64,000 nt of DNA from NCBI GenBank assembly GCA_903889895.1, contig CAISYZ010000257.1, forward strand, positions 6,196-70,195, in the 5' to 3' direction. This document shows, piece after piece, positions 7,324 through 52,721 of the stretch. The notes below the pieces were generated by a model. It had not been told where the DNA came from, made no database searches, and saw only the letters and a list, made by a program, of their open reading frames with translations. The position numbers and the translations under genes are program-made. The stretch comes from an uncultured Verrucomicrobia subdivision 3 bacterium (lineage in GTDB: Bacteria; Verrucomicrobiota; Verrucomicrobiia; Limisphaerales; UBA11358). Numbering within the stretch: position 1 is the first letter of the stretch; every line of letters starts with the position of its first letter.

Positions 7324-7559
7324 GGCGGCAGCATAAACTTTTTGCCGGCGCGCAAAAAGGGGAAATGTATTACCTCCGTGGTGGCGGCAAAAAAGGTTTA
7401 AAAATTCGCTCGAAACGGGGAGTCATGGCTGGACCTTTTTGGAAATATCTTTTTGGAATCGGAATGAAGGCTTCGGGACAAATATCCATCCGGGCACCGC
7501 AAACCAGCGGCGGGGCCGCCATTTTTTATAGAGGCTTTTCCCGTGGGGCCGTCGTCCGT

Positions 7560-7780
7560 CCCCAATTGTCGGACCATTTTCCCCAATTACGAAGCACCGC
7601 CCCCAATTTACCAACGGTCGTCCCCATTTTTTGGATGGCTCCCCCCAATTCCCCGAAGGCTCCCCCCATTTGCCGGGGCACCGCCCCCAATTTTTTAGCC
7701 TCTCCCCCCAATTTTCGGAGGGTTCCCCCCAATTTCCCGACGACCTCCCCCAATTTTTTTACCGCCACTCCGGTTTTTAA
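7560..7780. repeat. Degenerate 21-bp-period tandem array 1, core CCCC(C)AATT plus ~12 variable nt, ~10 units
   Basis: First A after the C-run at 7564, 7585, 7605, 7626, 7647, 7668, 7689, 7710, 7731, 7752. Confidence 0.9.
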
Positions 7781-7836
7781 CAGCCTGTTTACCAGCCAGT
7801 TGCGTATGATTTGTCGGTTTTTAACCCCCTTGAACC

Positions 7837-8697
7837 ATGCGAATCGCGTATTTCGATTCCGGCGATCCGGAAATGCACTTCGACAATCCGAACTTAATTT
7901 GGTCCGACCCATCGTATCTGCGTGAGCCGGGCGATCCCGGTTACATACCACCCTCTCCACCACCGACCCCAACCACTAAACATAAAATGAAAACTCCGCA
8001 CTGCCCCGTCCCTGTCATCATCCACAACGGCAACCTCATCGTCGCCGCCGCGAACAAATATCCCAAGGTCGCTGCCCGGATGCCCGCCAACTATCTCGCC
8101 GAGACGACCACAGCCCTCGGCAAACTGCCCACCGACATCACCGGCCAGAAAATTGCCCAAGGCGAGACCGGCAACCTCACTGCCGCGCAACAAGCCAACC
8201 TCGATTCGCTGCTGCATTGCATGAGCCAGGCCCGCAAGACTGCCAAACTCGCCTTTCCCGGCCAGACCGTGAAGTTGCATCAGGAATTTCAAATCGGCAC
8301 CCACGATTCACACGAGCTGAATGCCGTGTTGAGCCGCGCCGACATCATTCTGGCCTCCGTGCAAACCACGGCGAACCTACCCGCGCTGAAACTCAAAGGC
8401 TGGACCGATGCCGAAACGCAAACCTTCACCACCGTGCGCGGCACGTTTCCCGCCAGCACCACCACGCAGCAATCCGGCCAGAGCGACGCCAAAAAGGCGA
8501 CCGCCACGAAAGCCGCCGATGCCGCCGATGCCTACGAACATCTGTTGACCATCCAAAACGCCGCCGACTTGGAATTTCCCGCCACGAACGCGGCCAACGC
8601 CCCGATCCGCGCCGAATTCCGGCTGGGCATATTCCCGCCCGATCACCACACCCCGCCCGAACCGCCAACGCCGGCGCCCGTGACTGCGAAGCCGTGA
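7837..8697 (+). CDS. Hypothetical protein: 50-aa leader plus two helical repeats; array-1-associated
   Basis: Plausible codon usage, Pro-rich linker and tail, internal Met at 7987; no recognised family. Confidence 0.8.
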   Translation: MRIAYFDSGDPEMHFDNPNLIWSDPSYLREPGDPGYIPPSPPPTPTTKHKMKTPHCPVPVIIHNGNLIVAAANKYPKVAARMPANYLAETTTALGKLPTDITGQKIAQGETGNLTAAQQANLDSLLHCMSQARKTAKLAFPGQTVKLHQEFQIGTHDSHELNAVLSRADIILASVQTTANLPALKLKGWTDAETQTFTTVRGTFPASTTTQQSGQSDAKKATATKAADAADAYEHLLTIQNAADLEFPATNAANAPIRAEFRLGIFPPDHHTPPEPPTPAPVTAKP

Positions 8698-9596: not shown

Positions 9597-9634
9597 TTCA
9601 CTGTTCCGTCACCCAATCGTCACACGGTTGTCAC
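9597..9634 (+). promoter_or_regulatory. Pho-box-like direct repeats upstream of phoB
   Basis: TTCAC/GTCAC/GTCAC/GTCAC at 9597, 9608, 9619, 9630 (11-bp spacing). Confidence 0.75.
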
Positions 9635-9679
9635 CGGATTGAAATTGTGTGACGAATTGCGGCGTGTCACACTGGCAGC

Positions 9680-10360
9680 GTGAAACCGCGAATTTTAGTT
9701 GTGGATGACGAGCCGGAAGCGGTGGAACTCGTCGAGTTTAATTTGAAGCAGGCCGGTTATGCCGTCACCACGGCGGCGGACGGCGCGGAGGCGCTCAAAA
9801 AGGCGCGCGGCCAGGTGCCCGACCTGATCATTCTGGACGTGATGTTGCCGGAGATGGACGGCTTTGAGATCTGCAAGACGCTGCGCCTCGACGCGGCCAC
9901 GGCCAAGGTGCCCATCATCATGCTCACGGCCAAAGCGGCGGAGATTGACCGCGTGCTCGGCCTGGAACTCGGCGCGGACGATTATCTGACCAAGCCGTTC
10001 AGCCCGCGCGAGCTGCTCTTGCGCGTGAAAAAAATCCTCGCCCGTTTCCAGACCGAGGAAAAGCCGAAGGAACAACTGCGCTTCGGCGATTTGCTGATTG
10101 ATTTGCCGCGCCACATCGTGAGCTGGAAGAACAAGCCCATCGAGATGACGGCGACGGAGTTCAAGCTCATCACCGTCCTGGCGCAGCGCGCGGGCCGCGT
10201 GCAGTCGCGCGACCAGCTTTTGCGCGATGTGTGGGAATACGACAGCCTGATTGACACCCGCACGGTGGACACGCACATGCGACGTCTGCGCGAAAAAATC
10301 GGCCCGGCCTCCAAGCATCTGGACACGGTGCGCGGCGTGGGCTACCGGTTTGTGGAATGA
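9680..10360 (+). CDS. phoB: OmpR/PhoB-family response regulator
   Basis: Receiver plus winged helix, 'TRTVDTHMRRLREK', 'TVRGVGY'; next to PhoR-like kinase and Pho box. Confidence 0.85.
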   Translation: MKPRILVVDDEPEAVELVEFNLKQAGYAVTTAADGAEALKKARGQVPDLIILDVMLPEMDGFEICKTLRLDAATAKVPIIMLTAKAAEIDRVLGLELGADDYLTKPFSPRELLLRVKKILARFQTEEKPKEQLRFGDLLIDLPRHIVSWKNKPIEMTATEFKLITVLAQRAGRVQSRDQLLRDVWEYDSLIDTRTVDTHMRRLREKIGPASKHLDTVRGVGYRFVE

Positions 10361-10433
10361 AGAAGTTGGTTTTGCCACGTTCCGCTGCTTGCGGTTAGTT
10401 TCTGCATTCTGCATTCTTACTTCTGCCTTTGCC

Positions 10434-11606
10434 ATGTGGCTTTTTCTTTTCATTCTCGCGCTCGCGGCGCTGGCCGGACTCCATTTCCGATGGCGGGCCA
10501 AGTTTCAGGCGCAGCGCGAGCAGCGCGCGGCGGAGATGGAGGCTTTTCAACGCAAGCAGCAGCAGACCTCGCTGGACGCGCAGGCGCAGCAAAAAGTTTT
10601 GTTCGATTCCATGCTCGAAGGCCTGCTGCTCCTCGACCGCAGCCGGAAGATTTACCTCGCCAATCGCACATTCAAAAGCCTGTTCGGCGTCAAGACCGAG
10701 CTGCGCGGCAAAACCGTCGTCGAGGCGCTGCGGTTGCACGAACTGGACGGCCTGCTCCAGCGCGCCGAAACCGAGAAGCAGGTGCTCGACTACGAAATCA
10801 AATTGCCGGGACTCGCCGAGCGTTGGTTGCAGGTGAACGCCGCCGCCATCACGAACGCCGCCGGCGAGCGCGACGGAACGATTCTGGTTTTCCACGATTT
10901 GACGCGGCTAAAACAGCTTGAGCGGCAGCGCGAAGAATTCGTCGCCAACGTCAGTCACGAGTTGCGCACGCCGCTTTCGCTCATCAAAGGCTACGTTGAA
11001 ACGTTGCTGGACGGAGCCAAAGACAATCCCGAAGTGGCCGAGCGTTTTCTGAAAATCATTGAGCGCAACGCGAACCGGCTGGATTTGCTCATCCAGGATT
11101 TGTTGACGATTTCCGCGCTGGAATCCGGGCGGATGAAACTGGAATTGTCGCCGGTGGATTTGCACGCGCTGACGGACAAAGTCCTGACGTTCCTGCACAC
11201 CAAGGCGGAAAACAAAAACGTCACGCTGATCAACGAACTGCCGGCACTCACGATGAATGCCGACGCGAACCGGCTTGACCAGGTGCTTGCGAACCTCGTG
11301 GACAACGCCATCAAATATGGCCGTGCGGAAGGCCTGGTCATCGTTGGTGGAAAAAAACTGGCCGATGGTGCGCTGGAAATTTTTGTGCGTGATGACGGGC
11401 CGGGCATTCCGGCGGAAGCGTTGGAGCGCGTGTTTGAAAGGTTTTATCGCGTGGACAAGGCGCGTTCGCGTGATCAGGGCGGCACCGGTTTGGGACTGGC
11501 GATTGTGAAACACATCGTCCACGCCCACGGTGGCGAGGTGCGCGTGGAAAGCGAACCGGGCAAGGGCGCGACGTTTTTCTTCACACTGCCGCAGCCATCT
11601 ATTTAG
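10434..11606 (+). CDS. phoR: PhoR-like sensor histidine kinase (TM, PAS, HisKA, HATPase)
   Basis: 'EFVANVSHELRTPL', 'FERFYRVDKARSRDQGGTGLGLAIVKH'. Confidence 0.85.
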   Translation: MWLFLFILALAALAGLHFRWRAKFQAQREQRAAEMEAFQRKQQQTSLDAQAQQKVLFDSMLEGLLLLDRSRKIYLANRTFKSLFGVKTELRGKTVVEALRLHELDGLLQRAETEKQVLDYEIKLPGLAERWLQVNAAAITNAAGERDGTILVFHDLTRLKQLERQREEFVANVSHELRTPLSLIKGYVETLLDGAKDNPEVAERFLKIIERNANRLDLLIQDLLTISALESGRMKLELSPVDLHALTDKVLTFLHTKAENKNVTLINELPALTMNADANRLDQVLANLVDNAIKYGRAEGLVIVGGKKLADGALEIFVRDDGPGIPAEALERVFERFYRVDKARSRDQGGTGLGLAIVKHIVHAHGGEVRVESEPGKGATFFFTLPQPSI

Positions 11607-23194: not shown

Positions 23195-25524
23195 TTTTGC
23201 TTCCATCGCAGCAGCCGCAGTGCGTTGCCAATGACGATCAAATCCGAAATGCCCATCGCCGCCGCGCAGAAAATCGGGCTGATGACGCCGCACGCCGCCA
23301 GCGGCACGCCGAGCGCGTTGTAAAAAAAAGCCCAGAACAAATTTTGCTTGATGGTGCGCAAAGTCGCGCGCGCCAGACCGAGCGCCTCCGGCACGGCTTC
23401 AATTTCTGATTTCAGCAGGATAATATCCGCCGCCTCGCGCGCCACGTCGCTCGCACGGCTCACTGCGATGCCGAGGTCAGCCTGCGTCAGCGACGGCGCG
23501 TCGTTGATGCCGTCGCCCACGAACGCCACGCGCTCGCCGCGCGACGGGGGCGTCGCGCCCACATTCTGCGACGGGGCGTCACAGCCACGCGCTTGAAGTT
23601 TTTTCACAAACTCCGCCTTTTGTTCCGGTCGCACTTCGGTAAACACATTTTCCGCCGCGATGCCGACTTGCTTGGCGATGCTGGCCGCCGTGAGTGAGTT
23701 GTCGCCGGTGATCAAATAGATTTTCAGCCCGTGCTGCTGGAGCTGTTTCACGACCTTCGCCGAATGCGTTTTCACCGTGTCGCGCACGGCGAAGAGGCTG
23801 AGCAATTCCTTTTCCGCCGATAGGCCGACAATTGTCGTGCCCTGCGCCGTCCATTCGGCGATAAATTTTTCGCCCGCCGCCAAATCCACGCCGCCTTCGC
23901 GTAGCCAGCTGAGCGAACCGAGGCGAATTTCCGATTTCCGATTTCCGATTGCCGATTTGGCTTCCACGCCGCAGCCGCAAATTTCCCTCCAGTCGGTAAA
24001 TTCAACTTTGTCCGAAGAAATTTTTGCAATCGCCTGACTGATTGGATGCGTGGAATTTCTGGCGAGCGCCGCCGCCAGTTTTTCCAATTGGCAATTGGCA
24101 ATTGGCAATTGGCAATCTAGCTGTGCGGCCACTTCCGGTTTGCCCAGCGTCAGCGTGCCGGTCTTGTCAAAAACCACCGCCGTGATTTTGCCGGCTTTTT
24201 CTAAGGCCACACCATCGCGGATCAAGATGCCGCGTTTCGCAGCGGTGTTCGCGCTCGCCATGATGGCGGCGGGTGTGGCCAAACCCATCGCGCAGGGACA
24301 CGCGACAATCAAAACACTGGCGGCGATGACAAATGCCTTGTCCGCGCCGGAATGGACAAACCAAAAGATGCCCGCTGCCAGCGCGATGGCGACGATAATC
24401 GGCACGAAGACGTTGCTGATGCGGTCGCCGAGGCGCTGGATGTCGGCGCGACTGGTCTGCGCGCGTTGCACGGCGGCGATGATGTGTGCCAGTGCGGTGG
24501 CTTCGCCGGTGGCGGTCACGCGCATAATTAGGCGACCGTTTAGATTCACCGTGCCGGCAAACAGTTCAGTGCCGGATTTTTTATCGGCGGGAACGGATTC
24601 GCCGGTGAGCATGGCTTCGTCCACGGCTGATTCGCCCTCCAGCACCACGCCATCCACCGGCACGCGGTCACCGGGGCGGAGCGCGAGACGGTCGCCTATT
24701 TTTAATTCCGCCACAGTGACATCAATTTCCACTTGCTGGTTCGGTGCCTGTCCGGAAGGACTTGCCGATTGCCGATTGCTGATTGCCGATTTGGGAAATG
24801 ACAATTTGCGAAGGTCAAACGGCTGGCCGGTCTGATTTGAAATTTGATATTCGGGATTTGAAATTCTTCGGGCCGTCTGCGGCGCGAGCTGCAACAAGGA
24901 TTTTAGCGCGCTGCTCGCTTTGTCGCTGACGCGCGCTTCAATCCAGTGGCCGGCGCTGATGAGCGAAATGATGGCGGCGGCTTCCATGAAATAGAGGTGT
25001 CCGCAACTGCTGCTGAACAAAACCCAGCAACTGAAGCCGAACGCCGTCGTGGAGCCGAGCGCGACGAGCGCGTCCATGTTGGACTGACCGACTTTGATTT
25101 GCCGCCACGCGCCGCGATAAAACTGCGCGCCGCAAAAAAGTTGCACGACGGCGGCGAGCGCAAACGACAGCCAGCGGAACCAGCCGGTCATCATCAGGCC
25201 GAAACCCCATTCGCCAACCATCAGCGCGGTGGTGACGGCGAGGCCGAGGATCAGATTCCATTGCCAGCGGCTTTGCCGCGCCGGTTCGCCGGATTTTTCG
25301 GGAACAATTTCTTTTGCCGCAAAACCGGCCTTGGCAATGGCGGTGAGAATTTCCGGAACACTCTTCGCTTCGGCGGAATGCCAGCGCACACTGGCGCGTT
25401 CCGTCGCCACGCTCACGCTGACGCTGTGGACGCCGGTGATTTTCTGCGCGGCCTCGGTGACTTTGCGGGCGCAGTTGTTGCAGGTCATGCCGGTGACGCG
25501 CAGTTCGGTGGTGGGCAGAGCCAT
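23191..25524 (-). CDS. copA: Cu(I)-type P1B ATPase carrying several in-frame repeat insertions
   Basis: HMA GMTCNNC, TGES, CPC, DKTGTLT, GDGIND, YN motif. Confidence 0.9.
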   Translation of the reverse strand: MALPTTELRVTGMTCNNCARKVTEAAQKITGVHSVSVSVATERASVRWHSAEAKSVPEILTAIAKAGFAAKEIVPEKSGEPARQSRWQWNLILGLAVTTALMVGEWGFGLMMTGWFRWLSFALAAVVQLFCGAQFYRGAWRQIKVGQSNMDALVALGSTTAFGFSCWVLFSSSCGHLYFMEAAAIISLISAGHWIEARVSDKASSALKSLLQLAPQTARRISNPEYQISNQTGQPFDLRKLSFPKSAISNRQSASPSGQAPNQQVEIDVTVAELKIGDRLALRPGDRVPVDGVVLEGESAVDEAMLTGESVPADKKSGTELFAGTVNLNGRLIMRVTATGEATALAHIIAAVQRAQTSRADIQRLGDRISNVFVPIIVAIALAAGIFWFVHSGADKAFVIAASVLIVACPCAMGLATPAAIMASANTAAKRGILIRDGVALEKAGKITAVVFDKTGTLTLGKPEVAAQLDCQLPIANCQLEKLAAALARNSTHPISQAIAKISSDKVEFTDWREICGCGVEAKSAIGNRKSEIRLGSLSWLREGGVDLAAGEKFIAEWTAQGTTIVGLSAEKELLSLFAVRDTVKTHSAKVVKQLQQHGLKIYLITGDNSLTAASIAKQVGIAAENVFTEVRPEQKAEFVKKLQARGCDAPSQNVGATPPSRGERVAFVGDGINDAPSLTQADLGIAVSRASDVAREAADIILLKSEIEAVPEALGLARATLRTIKQNLFWAFFYNALGVPLAACGVISPIFCAAAMGISDLIVIGNALRLLRWKQK
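23540..23588. repeat. REP-like palindrome doublet in frame within copA
   Basis: CGCGACGGGGGCGTCGCGCCCAC and TGCGACGGGGCGTCACAGCCAC; extra peptide before RVAFVGDG. Confidence 0.7.
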
Positions 25525-25694: not shown

Positions 25695-26005
25695 CCTTTG
25701 CCAAAACCTTTGGAACGGCTGGGAAACCTTTGGGAACGCTTTCCAAACCTTTCGGAAGGCTTCCAAAACCTTTGGTAACGTCTAAAAGGTTTTGGAAATG
25801 TTTCCAAAAAGTTTTGGAAGACTTTCGGCGGAAAACAAGATGCGCCATTAACATTAAAGTTTTTTCCAAAGGTTTTTGAAGGCTTTCCAAAACCTTTTTT
25901 AGAGACAAAAGAAGGTTTAGAAATGTTTCCGAAACCTTTGGTAACGGCTAAAAAGGTTTTAGAAATGTTTCCAAAAGGTTTTGGAGACTCGCCAAAGGTT
26001 TTGAC
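25695..26005. repeat. Degenerate 21-bp-period tandem array 2, quasi-palindromic unit TTCCAAAA(CC/GG)TTT(T)GGAA, ~13 units with a gap near 25825-25860
   Basis: Consecutive units tttccgaaacctttggtaacg / gctaaaaaggttttagaaatg / tttccaaaaggttttggagac / tcgccaaaggttttgacaaag. Confidence 0.88.
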
Positions 26006-33168: not shown

Positions 33169-33206
33169 GTTACAGGTGAATGGCGTAATTGTTACGTTTG
33201 CGTGAC
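33169..33206 (-). promoter_or_regulatory. Pho-box-like repeats upstream of prepilin/phosphatase genes
   Basis: Minus strand GTCAC/GTAAC/GCCAT/GTAAC at exact 11-bp spacing. Confidence 0.65.
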
Positions 33207-33247
33207 AAGCTGCCCACTTCCCGGCTGTGGCCAACGACCAAAAGCAA

Positions 33248-33277
33248 ACCCCGCCGACCATCGCTGGAAGGCGGGGT
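33248..33277 (-). terminator. Putative terminator of the FN3-domain gene
   Basis: ACCCCGCC/GGCGGGGT stem followed by TTGCTTTT on minus strand. Confidence 0.5.
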
Positions 33278-33294
33278 GAAGGTAATTAAACCTC

Positions 33295-34062
33295 TCAGGT
33301 GCTCATGCAGTTCACCGATGGGCAGTAATCGCTGGCCAAGTTTCCGCCGCCGAGGGCGCAAGCATCCACCGTATAGACCTTGCCCGGCGTCAGGTCGGGC
33401 AAAACAATGTTCAGCGTGGACGAAAAATTCTTGGTATAGACCAACGCGCCCGCCGCGTCGCGCACGCGCAGCAGATAGCCGCGCGCATGGGCCGAACCTT
33501 GCAGCTTCACCCCGAGGCTGCCGCTGCCCTTGTTGAAGAGGTTCACGATGGCTGGCACATCCGGGGTCATCGCGGCGTGATGGGCGGGAATAATCACGTC
33601 GAAGCCCGACAACATCGCCTGCTCCGGGGTGATGCCTGGAATGGCCTCGATGTAAGCCGCGAGCTGTCGGAGCAAAGCGATCAGAATTTCCTTCTTGGCG
33701 TTTTTGTCGGCAGTGAGCGGTTTGCCAAGGTTGGACGCGGCGGCATCGGCATCATGAAACGCGCCTTGGGCGGCGTCCAGATTGGCGATGGGGAAGGGCG
33801 GGTCTTTGAAGATGGCCGCATTCTTCGTCATCTGCGTGGCCACGTTGCTGGCGAATTTGTCCAGCGGCAGATCCATCAATTGCGCGAACGCGAGGGAGAT
33901 ATGGAACAGCATAACTTTTTTATTGGTCGGCTGGGGAGCCACGGGCGCGTCGTAATAAACCTTGTCCCCCCACTTGTAAGGCTGCCCGGTCAACGGATTG
34001 ATTCCGTTCCAAACCGCGCCATATTTTACGGGGTCGCTCATGCTCTCGTTCCAGCCAGGCAT
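33295..34062 (-). CDS. Hypothetical protein: 50-aa leader, helical domain, C-terminal fibronectin type III-like domain; array-3-associated
   Basis: 'L..LTPGKVYTVDA.A.GG...SD' FN3 signature; internal Met at 33912; upstream TTGACA at 34179-34174. Confidence 0.8.
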   Translation of the reverse strand: MPGWNESMSDPVKYGAVWNGINPLTGQPYKWGDKVYYDAPVAPQPTNKKVMLFHISLAFAQLMDLPLDKFASNVATQMTKNAAIFKDPPFPIANLDAAQGAFHDADAAASNLGKPLTADKNAKKEILIALLRQLAAYIEAIPGITPEQAMLSGFDVIIPAHHAAMTPDVPAIVNLFNKGSGSLGVKLQGSAHARGYLLRVRDAAGALVYTKNFSSTLNIVLPDLTPGKVYTVDACALGGGNLASDYCPSVNCMST

Positions 34063-34230
34063 TGGATATTTGGGGAACGCCTTCTACTCTGCCAAAAAAG
34101 CGTCGGCACCACAATAATTAATTTCAATAAATGTAATATAAAACGCTATAATCTATAAGATAAGAAAATCCTATGTCAACCGCCCGGCGGCCGAGGTTGA
34201 CGTCCCCGCCACCGCCCGCGAGCGGGTGGG

Positions 34231-34482
34231 CAGCTTGATTCAGGCCAGCGGGCGCTTGGTCTTGGACGGCGTTTCCTTGGTCAAGAATGGGGCTTCCTTA
34301 CTTAAAGATGCGGCTGCGTCGGTTAAGGAAATGATTTCCTCGGTCAAGGAAGCGCCAACCTTAACTGAGGATGAGATTTCCTTAGGTAAGGAAGCGGCAA
34401 TCTTGATTAAGGAAACGATTTCTTTAAATAAGGAAGCGCCTTCGTCGGTTAAGGAAGGCGCTTCCTTAACCGACTTTTCGGA
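34231..34482. repeat. Degenerate 21-bp-period tandem array 3, unit TTCCTT-N4-AAGGAA-N5, 10 clear plus 2 decayed units
   Basis: Unit starts 34273, 34294, 34315, 34336, 34357, 34378, 34399, 34420, 34441, 34462. Confidence 0.92.
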
Positions 34483-34547
34483 AAATTGGGGTAAAATTGC
34501 CCCAAAGGTGGACATTTTTGGTGTTTGCCGGCGGGTGAGGAGGCGTT

Positions 34548-34585
34548 GTCACCAAGTTGTCACGCAAAGCCCATAATCCTGTAAC
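34548..34585 (+). promoter_or_regulatory. Pho-box-like repeats upstream of giant surface protein
   Basis: GTCAC 34548, GTCAC 34559, CCCAT 34570, GTAAC 34581 (11-bp spacing). Confidence 0.65.

Positions 34586-51622: not shown

Positions 51623-52721
<1,099 letters not shown>

Follow-up and report, generated by a model that had tools for sequence, protein, structure and literature searches.

The spacer between two back-to-back promoters holds an accessory unit of 1.3 kb, whose helical-bundle/FN3 protein may recognize the unit of its own 21-bp array, probably in a cooperative way; from sequence comparisons we give this reading a probability of about 0.5. All positions refer to the window, i.e., the whole stretch of 64,000 nucleotides that was analyzed. 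The cassette lies between a prepilin-motif gene (ATG 33096, minus strand), after which an acid phosphatase gene is located, and a gene for a surface-type protein of 1528 aa (ATG 34664). The features of the region are the following.

33169-33208, minus strand: Pho-box-like element of the pilin-like gene with GTCAC / GTAAC half-sites (third-best genome match of the empty-allele matrix)
33240-33277, minus strand: intrinsic-terminator-like hairpin with U-rich tail, which closes the cassette (z -3.7 for 33236-33297)
33295-34041, minus strand: cassette gene, 248 aa; the alignment of homologs begins at the ATG at 34041
within 33295-34041, minus strand: residues 1-44, N-terminal extension (models and fold searches)
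within 33295-34041, minus strand: residues 45-152, predicted three-helix bundle (models and fold searches)
within 33295-34041, minus strand: residues about 160-248, FN3 domain (structure model and fold searches)
33865-33885, minus strand: codons 53-59, patch that tracks array divergence, candidate specificity determinant (covariation)
34086-34114, minus strand: likely promoter of the cassette gene, TTGTGG-N17-CAGAGT (from conservation)
34115-34173, no strand: AT-rich tract, 82% AT (67-89% in 9/9 subfamily loci)
34174-34201, no strand: GC-rich hairpin overlapping a TTGACA, kept only in the near copy L023
34249-34479, no strand: 21-bp array of about 11 degenerate units, free of indels, consensus TTCCTT-N4-AAGGAA plus 5 nt
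34546-34585, plus strand: Pho-box-like element of the large surface-protein gene (best genome match of the empty-allele matrix)

The site was compared among relatives. A search of 163 genomes of the genus gave 54 that match the large flanking gene; the loci of 29 of the 53 other matching genomes and three from another search were examined, and two loci ended at contig edges. In all 30 remaining loci the flanking genes are 212-536 bp apart, with neither the cassette gene nor the array between them, and G139 and G158 are empty at the site as well. In line with the original prediction that array and gene form one unit, both are absent from the site in 32 of 32 informative genomes of the genus, and both are present in the two full metagenome copies of the site (2/2). 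One of these, L023, encodes a protein that is 90% identical and carries the same array, whereas L024 encodes a protein of 61% identity with a drifted array unit and an N-terminal extension that is broken by a stop. In L024 (1641-1682) this stop lies at codon 14 of the 44-codon extension, the length of the extension and the phase of the array being unchanged. A further locus, L031, is a partial copy from the same species. Both boxes were placed in 22 of 30 empty alleles, where the distance from box to box is 16-316 bp; in the filled alleles it is 1337, 1352 and 1464 bp. In other species the empty spacer of 16-316 bp is unrelated DNA. The insert of 1337 bp holds the helical/FN3 gene only and no gene for a partition NTPase.

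The cassette had been described as lying between two divergent Pho boxes. This holds for its position; the boxes themselves belong to the flanking genes and are larger than described, with three half-sites at 0, +11 and +33 in both. A Pho box consists of direct repeats bound by PhoB at 11-bp spacing. The flanking elements match this half-site layout, whereas the array differs from it in sequence and symmetry. The matrix was built from the empty alleles only and then scanned across the genome, where the second-best match precedes a porin and a pstS-like gene, with a weaker match upstream of a phoB/phoR-like pair at 9606 (9606-11606). Matches under the top three are near the shuffle level (15 real versus 5-10 shuffled at score 16), and the phoB, phoR and pstS assignments come from matches below curated cut-offs. 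From the sites, the two flanking promoters are back-to-back and likely PhoB-controlled. Since the boxes are intact in the empty alleles, they are ancestral promoters of the flanking genes and not parts of the cassette.

A functional role in the phosphate regulon, in which the cassette couples or insulates the two boxes or is itself controlled by PhoB, is nevertheless suggested by its position exactly between the boxes in three alleles, the proteins of which form one clade together with P0003, and by a 33%-identical cassette in the same locus of G139. We consider such a role very improbable. No box-like site was found inside the cassette (best score 1.1 versus 29-30 for the boxes of the window), both boxes are intact without the cassette and point away from it, the empty spacer holds unrelated DNA, and other members of the family are found at unrelated loci. 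In G139 the cassette follows the same pilin-like gene and occupies another gap, and as this distant relative lies elsewhere in the same locus, the boxes are better seen as landing context.

The empty alleles are too diverged to give more than a bracket for the ends of the unit, which fall within about 33209-33240 and 34480-34545. Nucleotide-exact ends were ruled out for this reason, the closest promoter-type relative (G179) having 240 bp of unrelated DNA at the site. No joint that skips the cassette was found when a within-species empty allele was searched for in the contigs of 4 of 16 listed DNA runs (those with the lowest word shares), and contigs drop rare variants. Neither a shared terminal inverted repeat nor a target duplication was detected, as sequence matches at the junctions reach no more than 5-7 nt and are not the same in the three filled alleles, and a 12-bp inverted pair (33206-33217 / 34226-34237) was rejected as element ends because it is not kept in L023. 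The earlier statement that no transposase or target duplication can be seen was thus confirmed, also by the protein of the window, for which Pfam, NCBIfam and PHROG gave no match, neither to FN3 nor to a transposase.

Insertion sequences, MITEs and REP/BIME elements are patchy at intergenic sites and have dispersed related copies. The cassette has both traits in common with insertion sequences and MITEs but is without transposase, terminal inverted repeat and target duplication; with REP/BIME arrays it likewise shares the dispersed related copies and the patchy intergenic presence. Concerning the number of gains, the tree of the large flanking gene needs two changes, whereas promoter-leader trees are compatible with one. 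Since these trees disagree the region looks recombined, and from them one gain at the site, followed by recombination, is likely.

The hairpin, the TTGACA, the AT-rich tract and the terminator-like hairpin are all located where the original prediction had put them. The arms of the GC-rich hairpin are GTCAACC (34175-34181) and GGTTGAC (34195-34201), with the TTGACA at 34179-34174 on the minus strand; by itself the hairpin is unremarkable (z -1.5, 17 of 200 shuffles). Hairpins like the terminator at 33240-33277 follow the stop codon in L023 and L024. Use of the TTGACA at 34179 as promoter of the gene was rejected, since among eight relatives it is kept only in L023 and one other has a TTGACA elsewhere. 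A -10-like hexamer with a weak -35 is present 45-51 nt before the ATG in 10/10 loci of the 248-aa subfamily, and the scan for promoter-like sites gave 2 with 1.2 expected. The assumption of a promoter between array and gene therefore needs correction in one part: the array does lie upstream of the likely promoter, which is the motif about 50 nt before the ATG and not the TTGACA. With either choice the array would be outside the mRNA of the gene. A sigma-54 promoter was rejected, as the -24/-12 motif TGGC-N7-TTGC is absent within 200 nt of the ATG (0/9 subfamily loci). In two of four metatranscriptomes parts of the gene are matched by RNA contigs without a single difference, for which DNA carry-over is possible; none of the RNA contigs in the four metatranscriptomes was placed in the array, a gap that proves nothing.

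The start of the cassette protein has no signal peptide recognizable by inspection. The designation as an FN3 gene is supported by the predicted model, whose C-terminal domain folds as FN3 (Z 13.3, rmsd 1.8, 87 residues aligned to 3f7q), but not by Pfam for the protein of the window itself; PF00041 is found on 3 of 17 homologs. Residues 45-152 are modeled as a three-helix bundle at pLDDT 97. For this helical module Foldseek and VIA gave no specific fold match, the matches in the Atlas were unnamed clusters, and the best Z of 9.9 (talin-like bundles) is in a range which the tool calls common for helical bundles. The module fits no DNA-binding fold, as the listed structural matches are generic bundles with no ribbon-helix-helix or helix-turn-helix among them, and it is not basic (median net charge -1). 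Of 148 family sequences, 70-80% retain K113, R117 and R125. In the model residues 53-59 form a turn and the first turn of helix 1, and residues 69-75 the other end of this helix. A homolog with 53% identity to the protein of the window is found in a named Verrucomicrobiota record. No DNA-level constraint was detected in the 5' coding region, where the identity at fourfold sites is 0.45 versus 0.52-0.74 elsewhere (L024 cut at the early stop).

The array has a lag-21 identity of 0.55 over 34230-34480 versus 0.13-0.31 at lags 19, 20, 22 and 23, and neither this identity nor the complementarity of the arms was reached by any of 5000 shuffles. Palindromes of 16 bp every 21 bp had been proposed; array and period are real, the palindromes mostly imperfect, as nine centers (34280.5-34448.5) pair 3-6 of 6 arm bases and one is perfect. 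With a unit of 21 bp, successive half-sites have opposite orientation and are spaced 10 and 11 bp apart in turn. The units are arranged head-to-tail with 5-nt linkers and without unique spacers, whereas CRISPR-like repeat-spacer arrays have unique spacers between conserved repeats. A gene for a heptad peptide in the array was rejected: its 91-aa frame is interrupted by a stop in L023, and 93 arrays have no codon signature, with neither frame preference nor third-position excess. The excess of open frames in these 93 arrays is alike on both strands (57 versus 41 expected, and 53 versus 39). By these measures the array is non-coding.

As RNA the array of the cassette folds strongly (z -7.9), and its transcription into a hairpin-rich RNA that is bound by the cassette protein would also account for the covariation described below. 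We regard an RNA partner as improbable, since strong folding is expected of any palindromic repeat, no Rfam family was found in the array at gathering score, and a period of two helical turns suits duplex DNA.

Members of the family are often led by such arrays. A profile search gave more than 100 full-length relatives of about 205 aa among the best 150 matches. We collected 148 family loci, left out nine with too little upstream DNA and counted the remaining 139. Upstream of these genes 96 strict 21-bp arrays, 6 weaker ones, 16 arrays of 41/42 bp and one of 39 bp were found, and 20 genes had none; an array of 21 or 41/42 bp thus leads 118 of the 139, compared with 14 of 540 random control genes (strict 21-bp threshold). 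In the sixteen family loci with 41/42-bp arrays (L169, L186, L192, L194, L221, L234 and others) the length of the protein is normal. The source genome (G000) contains 16 helical-module genes and 69 arrays at lag 21, with 0-1 at lags 19, 20, 22 and 23 and with unrelated consensus units. By crude gene calls, 11 of these arrays precede members of this family, 9 precede those of a second family and 49 neither. Independent gain or loss of gene and array, which is not seen at the site of the cassette, is therefore partly seen genome-wide, as 49/69 arrays lead no recognized cassette gene. For 11 of the 49, a gene-led array in the same genome is similar at a level of at least 0.77; the array of the cassette has no such twin among the 49 in G000 (76% complete).

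The second array-led family consists of unknown proteins, one of which matches the profile of the first family weakly. In the window a second 21-bp array (7546-7792) leads a member of this family, a 286-aa gene at 7837-8697 on the plus strand (9 members in G000). This gene gave no Pfam or NCBIfam match, and no match in a profile comparison with the first family. A further 21-bp array of the window, at 25701-25976, is without a cassette gene and has as neighbors a gene for a heavy-metal P-type ATPase and a pair of EcoRI-type methylase and GmrSD/HNH nuclease. Short 7-bp tandem repeats are located at 23927-23958, 24085-24116, 24762-24791 and 52135-52168. Elsewhere in G000 two copies of an array and its flank, 93% identical, occur without the gene (C96:491-1038 and C196:7454-8025), and dispersed repeats of 120-180 bp adjoin several arrays. 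One gene-less array inside a conserved operon is found in G000 and G148 only, the unit having drifted, and 21 of 22 other informative loci lack it; by this distribution it is a lineage-specific gain. In L254 (G018) a two-gene module, presumably of the toxin-antitoxin type, fills the same gap. L002 and L025 both have a single palindrome like the array unit of L025 just after the stop, and the upstream array of L002 has drifted to another unit.

That the arrays are functionless satellites, homogenized by slippage upstream of a gene with which they merely co-travel, would fit the quick turnover of units among close relatives and the many gene-less arrays. In 10/10 loci of the 248-aa subfamily, which cover three clades, the distance between array dyad and ATG is 8-10 bp (mod 21), and unequal crossover could by itself keep this phase without selection. 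A family-wide lock of the phase was rejected, as only 10 of the 24 close pairs agree to 1 bp or better, and the phase holds in the 248-aa subfamily only. We assign a low probability to neutral satellites in view of the single period, the narrow array size (median 12 units, interquartile 11-14), the excess of palindromy (at least 0.6 in 51% of arrays versus 0% of column shuffles) and the covariation with a patch of the protein.

This covariation was discovered in the pair L028 and L029, the genes of which are 97% identical. Of the 21 coding bases that differ, 13 are located in codons 52-63, and 5 of 6 amino-acid changes fall at 53-59, while the arrays are only 58% alike; there are 2 base differences in codons 1-51 and 12 in the 215-bp spacer. 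The test used 34 disjoint pairs of closest relatives, each at least 60% identical outside these residues, from which the discovery pair and a near-identical pair were dropped. Array divergence tracks residues 53-59 beyond the overall divergence (partial rho 0.44, p 0.007, n=32), also without two more pairs with broken N-termini (partial rho 0.52, p 0.002, n=30). With random disjoint pairings the median was 0.48, compared with 0.04 in control windows. Residues 69-75 score as high as 53-59, whereas no significant covariation was found for residues 45-51 and 60-66 in the close pairs. Taken blindly across all residue windows, the maximum of the scan did not reach significance (permutation p 0.11), and a two-by-two count of 22 close pairs, with residue numbering offset by one, gave 14 concordant and 8 discordant pairs. 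Array similarity also tracks the overall identity (rho 0.53), and the pairs are not fully independent. Spacer identity and array do not go together (rho -0.36), which speaks against a single recombination tract. A convergent recognition code among distant proteins was not found for the patch, since distant proteins with similar arrays do not share residues 53-59; there, residues 59-65 scored above the patch, in non-independent pairs. As the array unit and a short patch of the protein change together, the protein likely binds its own array.

Alternatively, a host or trans-acting factor could read the array via its two-turn geometry, with the protein as regulated cargo, e.g., an adaptor, and the covariation as a result of shared ancestry or patchy recombination. 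A period that is fixed while the sequence is free, as in the 69 arrays of G000, fits such a factor, as do the persistence of a gene-less array with a drifted unit in two species and the constant phase in the 248-aa subfamily. The patch of L028/L029 includes synonymous changes, as a conversion tract would give, and 41 of 99 family members match phage tail-protein profiles, probably through FN3. Against this, the covariation is confined to the two ends of helix 1: the spacer shows none, nor do residues 45-51, which are nearer to the array, and family-wide the phase is poorly kept. We regard a host factor as unlikely, and prefer the reading in which the protein recognizes its own array.

Plasmid centromere arrays that are bound by an adjacent small protein are known from ParR/parC and SopB/sopC. 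ParB of pCXC100 is an adjacent small protein which binds a centromere-operator array cooperatively, according to the available part of the paper (PMC3074162). Such par systems have an uninterrupted row of repeats beside the gene of the binder, as does the cassette with its inferred binder, and they can serve as a model of how it works. The cassette differs from them in having no partition ATPase and in its chromosomal location, and a single genome can hold as many as 16 paralogues, whose units differ; the structural matches listed for its protein include no ribbon-helix-helix or helix-turn-helix protein. By this analogy it would work like a centromere-operator and is a member neither of the par systems nor of IS/MITEs or CRISPR arrays. 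Non-coding tandem repeats of 20-21 nt, with fixed length, variable sequence and several families per genome, are described for Bacillus in the available part of a study by Subirana and Messeguer (PMC8161180), who equate the repeat length with two helical turns, suggest a protein that polymerizes on the repeats and call the function of such constant-length bacterial repeats unexplained. The 21-bp arrays share with these repeats, as described there, the fixed period, the variable sequence, the several families per genome and the non-coding nature; an adjacent gene family, a palindromic half-site layout, empty-site alleles or a candidate cognate protein are not described in that part of the text. 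Literature searches, mostly outside the subscription journals, found no description of the cassette. Apparently new here are the empty-site resolution and the covariation of patch and array.

In the preferred reading array, promoter region, gene and terminator form a 1.3-kb accessory unit, which probably arrived once at this site between two back-to-back promoters by recombination without a transposase. Copies of the protein would occupy half-sites 10 and 11 bp apart on one face of the DNA, upstream of their own promoter. The outcome would be autoregulation or a nucleoprotein structure at the locus. By concerted evolution the unit would be rewritten 21 bp at a time, with the patch where helix 1 begins changing alongside, and gene-less arrays that carry the same unit would be read in trans. 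A wider reading, which is tentative and somewhat doubtful, is that of dispersed self-addressing pairs, in which a swappable patch of seven residues sets the 21-bp palindrome that the protein polymerizes on, with dozens of such pairs being orthogonal within one chromosome and gene-less copies of the array elsewhere addressed as well.

The locus supplies empty and filled alleles, a candidate binder and the natural near-isogenic pair L028/L029, which makes the question of recognition a direct swap of two proteins and two DNAs. If binding holds, the helical bundle would be a new DNA-recognition module with natural orthogonal variants. Self-addressing pairs, if true, would make the bundle a DNA-binding fold of a new kind, whose specificity is set by a short code that can be reprogrammed, and would account for the constant-length 21-nt repeats of bacteria.
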